From NCBI GenBank assembly GCA_017513865.1, contig JAFWMN010000008.1, positions 15,232-79,231 of the forward strand: a DNA stretch of 64,000 bases. The letters are read 5' to 3'. The stretch is from Bacilli bacterium (GTDB lineage Bacteria > Bacillota_I > Bacilli_A > RF39 > UBA660). The first letter of the stretch is position 1; each line of letters starts with the position of its first letter. The position numbers and the translations under genes are program-made. The notes beneath the pieces were generated by a model. That model did no database searches and was not told the DNA's origin. It saw nothing but the letters and a program-made list of their open reading frames with translations. This document shows positions 32,217 to 35,448 of this stretch, piece after piece.

Positions 32217-32340
32217 ACTTTATAATTTTTTATAAAGTTTTTTTATTTTAAAAGGAAATAATAAAAGCGCCCAGTATATTAATATATGAGGGCGCAAGCT
32301 AGGTAAGCCTCTTTAAAGGGGGTGATGCATATGGAGGAAT

Positions 32341-32406
32341 ATGGAATACTTAATTATTCTTGTTATCGTTTTAGTTATTCTAAAAGATACACCTCTAAAA
32401 AAATAA
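32341..32406 (+). CDS. Candidate type I toxin peptide 1 (21 aa, not in ORF track)
   Basis: GGAGG RBS; MEYLIILVIVLVILKDTPLKK; sits in a structured mRNA with 5'-3' pairing. Confidence 0.65.
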   Translation: MEYLIILVIVLVILKDTPLKK

Positions 32407-32464
32407 AAAAACCTAGCTATTAACTAGGCTAAACCAAATTGAGGTTTGCCTGGTGGCACCCTCT
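32405..32464 (-). ncRNA. Candidate antisense antitoxin RNA 1 (approximate ends)
   Basis: Minus-strand promoter at 32471..32499; CCTAG/CTAGG hairpin (32412..32428) followed by T-run on minus strand. Confidence 0.5.
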
Positions 32465-32470
32465 AAATAT

Positions 32471-32499
32471 TTTATAGCATATTCCTCATATTTTTTCAA
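32471..32499 (-). promoter_or_regulatory. Convergent sigmaA promoter (antisense RNA 1)
   Basis: TTGAAA-17-TATAAA with extended -10 TG on minus strand. Confidence 0.6.
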
Positions 32500-32526
32500 G
32501 TATTATTTGTTAAAGAAGGTGATTTT

Positions 32527-33204
32527 TTGGAAATTTTAAGGGTAAATAATTTAAGTAAAAAATATGGTAAAGGTGAAAACGAATTTTTGGCTTTAAAAAA
32601 CATTAATTTTAGTATTAATAAGGGTGAATTTGTTTGTATTACTGGTAAGAGTGGGTGCGGTAAAAGTACTTTAATTCATTTACTTGCTGGATTAGATAAA
32701 CCTTCTAGTGGGGAAGTTATTATTAATAATCAAAATATTTATAAATTATCTTTAGATGATTTAACTATTTTTAGAAGAAAAAATATCGGAATTATTTACC
32801 AATTTTATAATTTAATACCTAATTTAAATGTTAAAGAAAATATATTGCTTCCTTTATTTTTAGATAAGAGAACTATTAGTGAAAAAAGATTTAATAATCT
32901 TATCAGCGTTTTAGGAATTAATAGTAAATTAAAAAGTATGCCTAATGATTTATCTGGTGGTCTTCAGCAAAGAGTAGCTATTGGAAGAGCTTTAATAAAC
33001 AAACCTAAAATATTATTTGCGGATGAACCAACAGGTAATTTAGATAGTAAAAATAGTATGAAAGTTATGAGACTTTTAGAATTTTATAATAAAAAATTTA
33101 AACAGACTATTGTCATGGTAACACATGATGATTTATTAGCTAGAAGATGTCACCGAAATATAATTATGAAAGACGGAAAGATTATAAATGACATACGTAA
33201 ATAG
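32527..33204 (+). CDS. ABC transporter ATP-binding protein (LolD/MacB type)
   Basis: GKSGCGKS, LSGGLQQR, ADEPTGNLD, VTHD. Confidence 0.93.
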   Translation: MEILRVNNLSKKYGKGENEFLALKNINFSINKGEFVCITGKSGCGKSTLIHLLAGLDKPSSGEVIINNQNIYKLSLDDLTIFRRKNIGIIYQFYNLIPNLNVKENILLPLFLDKRTISEKRFNNLISVLGINSKLKSMPNDLSGGLQQRVAIGRALINKPKILFADEPTGNLDSKNSMKVMRLLEFYNKKFKQTIVMVTHDDLLARRCHRNIIMKDGKIINDIRK

Positions 33205-35107
33205 TTATATTTTAAATAGTAAAAAAAGAAATGTTTTTAGTATTATAGGTATTATTTTAAGTTCTATTTTACTTATTAGTGTTGGAATATTATTTTCGTC
33301 TTTAAGAGAATATTTAATTAATGAAGTTAAAAGTGAAATAGGGGATTATCATGTAATTATTAATGGTGAAGTTAATGATTATGATTTTATTTTAAATAAA
33401 AAATACAAAAACAAAAGATATTATGTTACCTATAAAAATATATACAAAGTATATGAAAATACGAGTAAAATATGTGATGGTAAATGCACTAGTATAACTT
33501 ATAACGAAAGCCTTCTTTCATTATATGGGCTATCACAAAACAAAAACATTTTAAGTACTTTTAAAAAAATCCTTTATTTTTTGGCGTTTGTTTTAAGCAT
33601 TATTATATTTTTTATAATCTATAATTCTTTTGAAGCTAATTTAAATAATAGAAATAAAGATATAGTTTTATTTAAATTTGCTGGAATGAATAATAATGAA
33701 CTATATAAATTATTTTTTAAAGAAGCTTTAATAATTGGTTTTTGCGGTCTTATTATAGGTTTTATTTTTTCTCTTTTTATAAACTGTATTTTTTTAAAAA
33801 TTATTAATAATTTACTTTATGAAATTTTTAGGGGCAAATTATTTTTGAAAATTTATTTTCCTTTTATTTTTATTCCTTTTTTATTTATGCTTTTGATTAT
33901 TCTTTTTTCTTCATTTTTGCCATTAAGAAATATTAAAAAGTATAATGTTATGGCTCTTTTTAGGAAAAAAGATGATATTAATAATGTCAGTGTTAAAATT
34001 ACTGGTAATTTTGTTTTATGGCTTACTAAAATAAATTATTTAAGAAGTAAAAATAAATATAAAAGTATAATTCTTTCTGTTTTTATTTTAATTTTTTCTA
34101 TAAACATATTTACGTTAACTTTAAAATATGGACTTGAATGTATTAATAAATTTGTAATTATGCCAGAATATGATTTAAAAATTAGTTTAAATGGTGATAG
34201 TAAATATTTAAATAAAATATCTAATGATTTAGATTCTAAGCAAAAGATTATATTTAGATCTTGTGATATGGATGTTAATATTTCTAAGAAAAATTTTATA
34301 AATGATTATAAAAAAAACATTAGTACTACTATTACTGATATTGGAGGAAATAATATTATTAATAAAGTTAACAAAGTATCTTTAGTAAATAATAGATTAA
34401 CGCATTTGAATTATAATCGTTTTAAAAATTTAAAGGAAATTAATTTTGATGATATAAAGATAAGTAATCTTTCATTAACAAATAAAATACCTTTTGGATT
34501 TAAAGATTCTAATAATTTAGTTATTAATTTAGATGAAATTAATTTTAATAAGGTGTGCCCAGAATATATAAATAATTTATATTTAAAAACAGATTATAGA
34601 GGAATTGACAGTTATTTAGATAAAATAATTAAAAAAAACAAACTTGATATAGTTTATATTAATGTTAAAAAAGCTAAAGAAATAACAAATAATTTAGTTT
34701 TAATAATTGAAATCTTTTTATATAGCATCCTTCTTTTTATATTCTTAGTTATGATTTCTGCGGTTATAAATACTATATCAATTAATATAAGTTATAGAAG
34801 TAGAGAATTAGCTAGTTTTCAAAGCTTTGGTTTAGAATCTAAAAAAATAATTTTTAGTTTATTTTTAGAAAGTTTAATAATAGGTTTTAAAGGATGGTTT
34901 TATTCTATTCCATTTATATTTATAATTAATAAATATTTATATACTGGTATTAAAAAAATATTCGATTTTAATAAAATAATTTTAAATTTAGATACTTTAT
35001 TTTTTAGTTTAATTTTATCGGTTATTACTATTTTTGTAGTTATGATGATTAGTTATAAATTTTTAAATAAAAATAGTTTAATTTATAATATAAAAAATGA
35101 AATTTAA
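33188..35107 (+). CDS. FtsX-like ABC transporter permease
   Basis: Two FtsX-type TM repeats (RNKDIVLFKFAG; RSRELASFQSFG); overlaps the ATPase gene. Confidence 0.82.
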   Translation: MTYVNSYILNSKKRNVFSIIGIILSSILLISVGILFSSLREYLINEVKSEIGDYHVIINGEVNDYDFILNKKYKNKRYYVTYKNIYKVYENTSKICDGKCTSITYNESLLSLYGLSQNKNILSTFKKILYFLAFVLSIIIFFIIYNSFEANLNNRNKDIVLFKFAGMNNNELYKLFFKEALIIGFCGLIIGFIFSLFINCIFLKIINNLLYEIFRGKLFLKIYFPFIFIPFLFMLLIILFSSFLPLRNIKKYNVMALFRKKDDINNVSVKITGNFVLWLTKINYLRSKNKYKSIILSVFILIFSINIFTLTLKYGLECINKFVIMPEYDLKISLNGDSKYLNKISNDLDSKQKIIFRSCDMDVNISKKNFINDYKKNISTTITDIGGNNIINKVNKVSLVNNRLTHLNYNRFKNLKEINFDDIKISNLSLTNKIPFGFKDSNNLVINLDEINFNKVCPEYINNLYLKTDYRGIDSYLDKIIKKNKLDIVYINVKKAKEITNNLVLIIEIFLYSILLFIFLVMISAVINTISINISYRSRELASFQSFGLESKKIIFSLFLESLIIGFKGWFYSIPFIFIINKYLYTGIKKIFDFNKIILNLDTLFFSLILSVITIFVVMMISYKFLNKNSLIYNIKNEI

Positions 35108-35131
35108 TGCAGGAAATGTGTCATTATTCGC

Positions 35132-35161
35132 TTGATATCATAAATGACGATATGTTATAAT
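35132..35161 (+). promoter_or_regulatory. sigmaA promoter for toxin-2 mRNA
   Basis: TTGATA-18-TATAAT with extended -10 TG. Confidence 0.65.
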
Positions 35162-35216
35162 TTGTGCAGGGAATATTTAACAGTTTGAGTGCTTACCTCC
35201 GAAAGGAGGTGGTGAT

Positions 35217-35291
35217 ATGTCTAAGAAAGATTTTTTAATCTTATCTTTAATCATTATCATCATTCTACTTATTATTCTATTATTAAAATGA
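35217..35291 (+). CDS. Candidate type I toxin peptide 2 (24 aa, not in ORF track)
   Basis: AAAGGAGGTG RBS held in ACCTCC-GAAA-GGAGGT hairpin; MSKKDFLILSLIIIIILLIILLLK. Confidence 0.75.
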   Translation: MSKKDFLILSLIIIIILLIILLLK

Positions 35292-35306
35292 TAATGAATT
35301 TTAAAA

Positions 35307-35413
35307 TGAAAAGCACTCAATCTAGACTAGATTAAGTGCACACCCATGAGGTGAGTACTCAACATTGTGGCGTTAAGTATTCCCTTTTTTATTATATGAG
35401 GTTTCCCTCATCT
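35307..35413 (-). ncRNA. Candidate antisense antitoxin RNA 2 (approximate ends)
   Basis: Minus-strand promoter at 35420..35448; hairpin GCACTCAATCTAG/CTAGATTAAGTGC (35313..35339) followed by T-run on minus strand. Confidence 0.55.
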
Positions 35414-35419
35414 ATATAC

Positions 35420-35448
35420 ATAATAACATAAAAAAGAGATTTTTTCAA
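35420..35448 (-). promoter_or_regulatory. Convergent sigmaA promoter (antisense RNA 2)
   Basis: TTGAAA-17-TATTAT with extended -10 TG on minus strand. Confidence 0.6.

Follow-up and report, generated by a model that had tools for sequence, protein, structure and literature searches.

Two candidate families of type I toxin-antitoxin modules beside a conserved ABC transporter-murG cluster in uncultured gut Bacilli

The DNA analysed here (the window) is a stretch of 64,000 nucleotides (nt) from an uncultured Bacilli bacterium (assembly GCA_017513865.1, contig JAFWMN010000008.1; C28:15232-79231 in our numbering), whose genome comprises 1.31 Mb in 41 contigs with 28% G+C. A pair of genes for an ATP-binding cassette (ABC) transporter lies between a DUF362 gene and murG, and the two intergenic regions flanking this pair are the sites of the elements described here, module A and module B. 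Each module encodes a membrane-type peptide of 21 or 24 amino acids (aa). Its mRNA is closed by a long helix between the leader and the 3' untranslated region (UTR), and next to the Shine-Dalgarno sequence (SD) lies an anti-SD, CCUC(C), that is able to lock it. Each module also holds, in convergent orientation, the gene of a predicted small RNA (sRNA), whose promoter is near consensus and which ends in an intrinsic terminator; the sRNA would be fully complementary to the very 3' UTR segment with which the leader pairs. The modules are likely to be independent chromosomal type I toxin-antitoxin loci, of two families, that reside in intergenic regions beside a conserved ABC-murG cluster.

The elements of module B are listed below with their window coordinates and strand (an arrow marks minus-strand reading); ORF stands for open reading frame.

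35132-35161, plus strand: promoter of the toxin-B mRNA, TTGATA, 18 nt, TATAAT with TG (11/12 matches in the signal scan; kept in homologs)
35168-35397, plus strand: predicted toxin-B mRNA, its 5' leader pairing with the 3' end in a long closing helix that is followed by a U-run
35186-35200, plus strand: leader, TTGAGTGCTTACCTC
35195-35210, plus strand: SD hairpin, ACCTCC-GAAA-GGAGGT
35217-35291, plus strand: toxin-B ORF, 24 aa, MSKKDFLILSLIIIIILLIILLLK
35311-35320: short leader complement, AAGCACTCAA, inside the minus-strand terminator
35339->35313, minus strand: terminator
35349-35363: longer leader complement, GAGGTGAGTACTCAA
35302-35417, minus strand: predicted antitoxin sRNA-B of ~116 nt, with a 5' hairpin (GATGAGG-GAAA-CCTCAT), a middle stem-loop and the terminator at 35339->35313
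35448->35420, minus strand: promoter of sRNA-B, TTGAAA, 17 nt, TATTAT with TG (signal scan)

The toxin-B mRNA (35168-35400) folds at -74.1 kcal/mol (z = -8.3), a value that none of 200 shuffled sequences reached, and its initial ~26 bases pair with the bases just ahead of the 3' U-run. The predicted sRNA-B stops at 35302 and the toxin-B ORF at 35291, and thus the two do not overlap. Module A, on the other side of the transporter genes, is laid out as follows.

32252-32292, plus strand: promoter-like motif, AAGGAAAT, 12 nt, CAGTATATTAAT, then GAGGG
32296-32467, plus strand: predicted toxin-A mRNA (ends also predicted), with leader, SD1 hairpin, leader ORF, toxin ORF and a 3' UTR with two leader complements
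32298-32311, plus strand: leader, GCTAGGTAAGCCTC
32308-32322, plus strand: SD hairpin, CCTCT/AGGGG
32331-32423, plus strand: leader ORF of 30 codons, beginning 8 nt past the strong SD1 (GGGGGTGA), out of frame with the toxin ORF and spanning all of it
32341-32406, plus strand: toxin-A ORF, 21 aa, MEYLIILVIVLVILKDTPLKK, with GGAGG 3 nt before the ATG
32411-32417: short leader complement, ACCTAGC, which is one arm of the minus-strand terminator
32430->32410, minus strand: terminator
32441-32453: longer leader complement, GAGGTTTGCCTGG
32403-32468, minus strand: predicted antitoxin sRNA-A of ~66 nt, a 5' stem-loop plus the terminator at 32430->32410 (alignment A6)
32499->32471, minus strand: promoter of sRNA-A, TTGAAA (32499->32494), 17 nt, TGcTATAAA, read by eye

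The toxin-A mRNA folds with z = -3.2 (2 of 200 shuffles were equally good) and is also supported by an alignment of 10 family members (A4). Its promoter-like motif, within which the GCGCCC...GGGCGC hairpin of a preliminary description of this DNA falls, is unlike a sigma-A promoter. The promoter of sRNA-A is absent from the signal-scan list because its second hexamer ends in A, and the homologs that were read carry sigma-A-like promoters at the equivalent position. The tail of sRNA-A (32403) reaches just the stop codon of the toxin-A ORF (32404-32406).

All of the elements that the preliminary description had named, namely a leader ending in CCTC, the SD hairpin, the ORF, the two complements, the terminator and a TTGAAA-17-TGnTAT promoter, are thus present in both modules. 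That these layouts exceed chance is borne out by the terminators (three terminator-like sites in the signal scan, two of which are the minus-strand terminators within the modules, against 0.5 +/- 0.6 in shuffled sequence), by the z-scores of the mRNA folds and by recurrence in many genomes with compensatory changes. The anatomy likewise supports the toxin/antisense identity proposed there. Both modules have a hydrophobic ORF on a short structured mRNA, the class range being 20-60 aa, and, as predicted from sequence, an antisense gene with its own promoter and terminator that is complementary to the toxin mRNA; these are class features of type I systems, the first as defined in PMC8594479 (this paper and the others identified by PMC number are drawn on in part).

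How could such a module work? In the bsrG mRNA of Bacillus subtilis, nt 1-35 pair with nt 232-262 in helix P1, with the SD in a 4-bp helix; when the antisense RNA SR4 binds to the 3' part, the 5' end becomes single-stranded, the SD helix grows to 8 bp and RNase III-dependent decay is promoted (PMC3834814, in part). In both modules here the sRNA sequence resembles the leader, and thus the two compete for one 3' UTR segment. By analogy with bsrG/SR4, the sRNA would bind the 3' UTR and displace the leader, and the freed anti-SD CCUC(C) would then seal the SD and switch translation off, while the RNA duplex would be cleaved, probably by RNase III. Upon loss of the sRNA, some mRNA would become translatable and the peptide would damage the membrane. 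In module A, translation of the toxin is probably coupled to that of the leader ORF at the regulated, strong SD1, much as hok is coupled to mok.

The pairing on which this scheme depends is specific to each module. For 17 B copies and 10 A copies we determined the best duplex between leader and 3' tail and its z-score against shuffled tails. In family B, cognate duplexes average -33.8 kcal/mol and non-cognate ones -24.2 kcal/mol, with z between -3.3 and -9.1 in all 17 copies; in family A the values are -22.7 and -17.6 kcal/mol, with z from -1.0 to -7.3 over the 10 copies. For the two modules of the window, the cognate duplexes reach -22.3 kcal/mol in A (z -4.3) and -41.0 in B (z -9.1), as opposed to -14.4 and -13.7 for the crosses. 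The computed energies therefore agree with the earlier proposal that the helices differ while pairing is preserved and does not cross-react.

A close relative, genome G004, provides a natural example. Its cluster is 97-99% identical to that of the window, with 97-98% identity in the flanks of the B slot, and both promoters within this slot are identical (L071 ~2905-3236 against window 35108-35470). Yet the slot holds a different 29-aa toxin, a different leader and a different 3' helix. The duplex of the G004 leader with its own tail reaches -33 kcal/mol, as against -8 to -18 kcal/mol with other tails. By sequence comparison, one allele has been exchanged for another in the B slot of G004 while the frame around it stayed the same.

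Relatives of module B are abundant. A DNA search returned matches in 35 of the 36 other genomes of the genus, up to 15 in each, with the antisense promoter and the 5' end of the sRNA as the most conserved stretch; many matches of 85-93% identity cover only positions 250-345 of the query. On contig C29 the window's own genome (G000) has a second B copy, flanked on one side by era-recO and on the other by genes for a membrane protein and a tRNA synthetase together with sepF. The peptides of fifteen full homologs are 24-30 aa long and share the consensus MxKKDFLIxSLIIIIxLLIxLLF and nine invariant columns (alignment A1), and the B frame houses several toxin types, for example MKTKTF..LISIIL.., MTKRE.SLF.IILLLF.. 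and MRKRKFIIKVL... From the 15 aligned mRNAs, RNAalifold predicts both the 5'-3' helix and the terminator hairpin, each with compensatory changes: columns 10-242 (CG5/UA4/UG3), 12-240 (UA11/CG3) and 15-237 (CG10/UA4) belong to the 5'-3' helix, and columns 166-191 (UA8/CG7) also covary. The family fold of sRNA-B consists of the 5' hairpin, the middle stem-loop and the terminator, with 9 of 19 consensus pairs changed on both sides.

The preliminary description had suggested a covariance-model scan for further homologs, and these exist. We built models of the sRNAs, R1 for family B from 18 sequences and R2 for family A from 10, whose E-values are rough owing to a short calibration, and ran them against genome samples of the order and the class that are draws rather than complete sets. 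In its own genome, sRNA-B matches R1 with 113.7 bits (E 7.6e-16). Matches to R1 occur in 93 of 151 genomes of the order sample and in 54 of its 86 genera, with up to 17 per genome and tandem arrays among them, all within family f1 (92/149), a group of uncultured gut Bacilli with genomes of ~1-1.5 Mb. The class sample gave matches in 5 of 13 f1 genomes and in none of 137 genomes of 25 other families. In an exact-pattern scan of one genome for each species, the sRNA-B motif turned up in at least 120 stretches. Almost all of these are in records from animal or human guts that are labelled uncultured Bacilli, Tenericutes, Mycoplasma sp. CAG:611, Candidatus Coprosoma, Candidatus Ventrenecus or Erysipelotrichaceae; two are labelled Muribaculaceae and one Ruminococcus.

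Some B loci are incomplete or repeated. One (L211, G094:C9) has a stop inside the toxin ORF and another (L215, G095:C7) a decayed toxin part, while the sRNA region of each still scores with R1; by their sequences, both look like orphan antitoxin remnants. Three R1 matches spaced 358 nt apart form a tandem array at G111:C3:184237-185063.

Family A is narrower. R2, which matches sRNA-A in its own genome with 68.6 bits (E 5.8e-12), found matches in 16 of 65 genomes of the genus and, in the order sample, in the own genome only (1/151). The A peptides follow the pattern xEYLVILVVILVLLKDxPxKK, in a frame kept in all eight aligned homologs, with ATG, GTG or TTG starts (alignment A2). Because the peptide frames are conserved across homologs, the short ORFs of the modules are evidently real, and of the frames in module A it is the hydrophobic one that is conserved. 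Upstream of it, all ten A members that were examined have an ATG behind SD1 (GGGGGTGA or GGAGGTG, within the anti-SD hairpin); the ORF that begins there has 3-37 codons, is either out of frame or a mini-ORF of 3 codons, and reaches or crosses the toxin start. The toxin's own GGAGG lies 3-5 nt from the start in eight of the ten and is replaced by the weaker AAAGGAAA in the other two. A leader ORF was seen in none of the B copies that were read. Among the A loci, L026 (G033:C34:8572-9293) is a tandem array of three A-type units, of which the first retains only its sRNA part, and L022 (G004:C18), a homolog of 32341-32406 in a module otherwise 99% identical, has an altered stop that yields a 28-aa peptide (MEYLIILVIVLVILKDTPLKKQKNLAIN).

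Are A and B two members of one undescribed family, as had been proposed? The second half of that proposal stood, as no curated family was matched, but peptides, promoters, the R1 and R2 searches and the ranges all divide the modules, and by sequence they are two separate families. It is rather unlikely that they are diverged members of a single family with one origin, even though they occur in the same genus and the order of their parts is identical, from the leader with its anti-SD through to the convergent promoter. This order is also that of bsrG/SR4 (PMC3834814, in part) and is thus common to the class rather than the mark of one family. At E <= 1 in the own genome, R1 matches two B copies but not A, its other matches being weak reverse-strand echoes (E 0.1-0.5), and R2 matches A but not B, with one other match on C22 (E 0.34). 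Moreover, the polarity of the peptides is opposite, with an N-terminal KKD before the hydrophobic part in B and the hydrophobic part before KDxPxKK in A; the toxin promoters differ; the sRNAs, of 116 and 66 nt, fold differently; the second SD and the leader ORF exist in A alone; and B is family-wide while A is confined to the genus.

The setting between two such modules raises the question of the transporter, whose cluster comprises these genes.

31314-32216: DUF362 gene
32527-33204, plus strand: ABC ATPase of the MacB/LolD/FtsE-like branch (Pfam ABC_tran, E 1.7e-35)
33188-35107, plus strand: permease of 639 aa with two FtsX domains (Pfam FtsX, two stretches, E 4.3e-25)
35541-36638: murG

The pair had been labelled LolD/FtsX-type. 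The FtsX part holds for the permease, with its two domains, but the ATPase, although LolD (TIGR02211) is its best NCBIfam model, scores 231.4 bits, below the equivalog cut-off of 307.75. In 25 of the 30 murG loci of the genus (L216-L245), the gene immediately upstream of murG encodes a homolog of the double-FtsX permease, and two of the five loci without it have less than 200 nt of upstream sequence. The ABC-murG arrangement is thus conserved core synteny rather than an accessory cassette, and as judged from sequence the ABC system is conservatively paired with a cell-wall and division cluster in the genus. In most of the 25 loci, the permease upstream of murG-murB-divIB is merely 36-50% identical, yet the pairing is conserved.

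This arrangement does not accord with the suggestion that the modules are addiction modules stabilising an accessory cassette, a reading rejected on the strength of the permease-murG pairing. Rather, the cluster persists in close relatives with two modules, one or none: both are present in G000 and G004, A only in G034, B-type only in G001 (where the cluster is on a contig without murG) and none in G074. Hence a check of the cassette's presence between DUF362 and murG, which had also been suggested, finds the ABC pair conserved beside murG but the modules variable. Across the 30 genus loci, a B-type motif between permease and murG occurs in G000 and G004 only. A small mobile element with terminal repeats and a target duplication was rejected as well, since comparison of the filled (G000) and empty (G034) permease-murG sites revealed no clear duplication and nothing beyond a 6-nt inverted match. 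Contigs of four DNA runs (X4-X7), aligned to 31300-36700, matched as numerous short fragments that fit in part and join by chance, and are not a reliable guide to the presence of the modules.

Different genes occupy the space from DUF362 to the ABC ATPase gene in each genome, which makes it a variable spot. From motifs read in the sequence alone, these are genes for a zinc-ribbon and a membrane protein in G004 (L071), for Fic-like, small and MgtC-like proteins in G034 (L072) and for pentapeptide-repeat and MgtC-like proteins in G001 (L076), and a DUF362 fragment in G074 (L073). Elsewhere in the window, a search at the Rfam gathering level found only ordinary elements, four tRNA genes and a ribosomal protein L21 leader (29595-30111; 46865-46942).

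That the modules are tied to the transporter, with the peptides as its substrates, regulators or immunity partners, or with module A as a regulatory leader of the ABC operon, is nonetheless worth weighing, even if unlikely. In the regulatory-leader version, the toxin mRNA would read into the ABC operon and the sRNA would be antisense to the 5' UTR of the operon. Module A is indeed co-directional with the ATPase gene and lies ~60 nt upstream of it with no good sigma-A promoter between, and in G074 and G001 the promoter-like motif of module A stands immediately ahead of the start codon of the ABC ATPase gene, such that in G000, G004 and G034 module A sits between motif and operon. Furthermore, module A adjoins the ABC pair in three genomes and a B-type module follows the permease in three. 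However, the carrier genomes belong to one close lineage, with DUF362 87-98% identical, and hence the adjacency reflects shared inheritance and does not count as independent evidence. The G074 cluster is without any module, and tblastn across 40 loci placed the window permease or the orthologous ATPase only at G000, G004, G034 and G074 (L003 and L005 have unrelated ABC ATPases of 42-45% identity), so most family members have no such transporter nearby. In the own genome the second B copy is beside recO, the B slot of G004 carries a different toxin, and the up to 17 R1 copies per genome far exceed the number of murG-adjacent transporters; nor do the peptides have an export leader. The earlier idea that the peptides are functionally tied to the transporter is thus not upheld, save for one weak link, the place of module A between motif and ABC start. 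If the modules are independent toxin-antitoxin loci, their flanking of the transporter would have no function of its own and would reflect insertions into permissive intergenic sites in one sublineage. The arrangement should not be read as an addiction-stabilised island.

Several points weigh against the interpretation of the modules as type I toxin-antitoxin loci. The transcripts, their ends and the sRNAs are predictions; so is toxicity, and small hydrophobic peptides are not all toxins. A look-up of RNA runs covering 32200-35560 returned none. There is no clear sigma-A promoter for the toxin-A mRNA. For the toxin-B mRNA, the minimum-energy and centroid folds differ as to the partner of the anti-SD (the SD or the 3' GAGGUG), and owing to this disagreement the direction of the switch is one that we infer; the disagreement itself fits a switch. 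In one A copy, L024a, leader and tail pair weakly (z = -1.0). A permissive Rfam search of 31900-35800 gave a match of BsrG (RF01412) to module A at 22.9 bits (E 0.014), which is below the gathering threshold of 55, and none to module B at E <= 10; its other matches (RsaH, n00280, manA-II, symR, ES239) were at chance level. Pfam and NCBIfam returned nothing at E <= 1 for either peptide, and nothing for the leader ORF of module A. Lastly, as module A lies between the motif and the ABC start in the same direction, a regulatory effect on the ABC operon is possible in this lineage.

Since toxicity is a prediction, the peptides could also be small membrane proteins with a non-toxic role, for instance modulators of membrane proteins or competence-phase peptides, under cis-antisense control. 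The ESM Atlas clusters nearest to a 30-aa member are small membrane proteins (YoaK, YncL) with scores of at most 0.81, which serve as leads only, and the promoter motif of module A is common to comEA-comEC and radC. It is nevertheless hard to reconcile a benign role with the layered control of translation by a closed mRNA, a sequestered SD and an antisense RNA from a near-consensus promoter, with up to 17 copies in genomes of ~1.2 Mb, some in tandem, with an sRNA kept beside a broken toxin ORF, or with alleles swapped between near-identical strains. Layered repression, many copies, orphan sRNAs and allele swaps are traits that characterise type I toxin-antitoxin loci (PMC8594479, in part); small proteins with housekeeping roles do not typically show them. 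We therefore consider a non-toxic role to be distinctly improbable.

Retaining the toxin-antitoxin interpretation, it is tempting to take it further on two counts at once. B-type modules may constitute a family-wide toolkit in which conserved promoters and the 5' hairpin of the sRNA frame an exchangeable core of toxin plus its matching leader and 3' helix; the A-type toxin, for its part, could be a member of a sigma-H/ComX-like competence regulon and be translated only via its mok-like leader ORF. Taken jointly, these two proposals are tentative and we regard them as possible rather than probable. In such a toolkit, strains would swap mutually orthogonal cassettes at one site, a pattern to which the sequences of G000 and G004 conform.

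The competence part derives from the motif ahead of module A. Its consensus in the own genome is AAGGAAA, 13-14 nt, CAGTATAT(T/A), 6-8 nt, GAGG, and it precedes comEA-comEC, a C39-peptidase ABC exporter, an M23 peptidase gene, recG, a 154-aa gene with radC and mreCD downstream, and an operon of thioester-domain and amidase genes. The sites beyond that of module A are as follows.

Window 42915-42945
G000 C28:174900(-)
G000 C33:11498(-)
G000 C33:171187(+)
G000 C29:5442(+)
G000 C23:160815(+)

A-family copies elsewhere have AGGAATT, ~15 nt, GTATATTAT, and the motif is partly repeated on both sides of module A in G034 and G000. The -35 part fits the sigma-H consensus that PMC4754846, seen in part, provides, but the -10 part does not. 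The motif was not found within 1.5 kb upstream of the three T2SSE genes of the own genome, and Pfam DprA and CoiA were not found in this genome, which is 92% complete. For these reasons, a competence-type promoter is a lead and not a result. No promoter consensus was found in the excerpt of a paper on Staphylococcus SigH (PMC3486894), and the excerpt of PMC6212727 lists three type I systems with no link to ComX. If the proposal is true, a type I toxin would be tied to the competence state in an uncultured gut lineage.

It remains to place the modules among known systems. No already described family was matched at the Rfam gathering level or in Pfam or NCBIfam, and we found no literature that connects RF39 with toxin-antitoxin systems of type I. 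Similar peptides may be present in the family tables of T1TAdb or among the candidates listed by Fozo et al. 2010 (cited in PMC8594479). The hok/mok/sok system of plasmid R1 is alike in that its mRNA is closed by 5'-3' pairing, and the leader ORF of module A, at a strong regulated SD and overlapping the toxin ORF, resembles mok-hok coupling, such that a similar coupling may operate here. It is unlike in that Sok pairs with the translation-initiation region of mok at the 5' side whereas the antisense RNAs here lie over the 3' UTR, and in being a Gram-negative system without an Rfam or Pfam match here.

Fst/RNAII (par of pAD1) and SprA1/SprA1as share with our modules Gram-positive hosts, convergent genes, a common terminator region and an antisense RNA outside the ORF (PMC8594479, in part). 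Their functional pairing, however, involves repeats in the 5' region of the toxin mRNA, away from the 3' overlap, while the sRNAs here resemble the leader instead of being complementary to it and thus must act at the 3' UTR. Nor was there an Rfam or Pfam match, or a toxin family, that would assign the modules to the Fst type.

The closest likeness is to bsrG/SR4 of the B. subtilis SPbeta prophage, within the BsrE-G-H and TxpA/RatA group, and BsrG is the only Rfam family with any match that we note as a likeness (module A, 22.9 bits). Both have a small hydrophobic toxin, a long 5'-3' mRNA helix with the SD in a short helix (here from folds, compensatory pairs and duplex z-scores) and a convergent antisense RNA complementary to the 3' part (PMC3834814, in part). 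In contrast, our peptides have 21-24 aa rather than 38 and lack BsrG/TxpA homology in Pfam and NCBIfam, the sRNAs have 66 and 116 nt rather than ~180, and the host is an uncultured small-genome gut lineage of Bacilli. The antisense RNAs of the BsrE-G-H group overlap the toxin ORF according to T1TAdb (PMC8594479, in part), whereas the sRNAs predicted here have no coding overlap.

T1TAdb comprises 24 families, those of Gram-positive bacteria having the antisense RNA on the 3' side, as here (PMC8594479, in part), and type I systems have been catalogued for few phyla only (PMC12390103, a 2025 paper, in part). Judged by sequence, the modules are two so far unnamed families of the known type I kind that fall outside bsrG/SR4. 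Both now have working covariance models, and B is very abundant in f1 gut Bacilli. With many natural variants whose leader/3' UTR helices compensate one another, they offer an existing collection of orthogonal RNA switches and a favourable system in which to test the bsrG/SR4-type mechanism.

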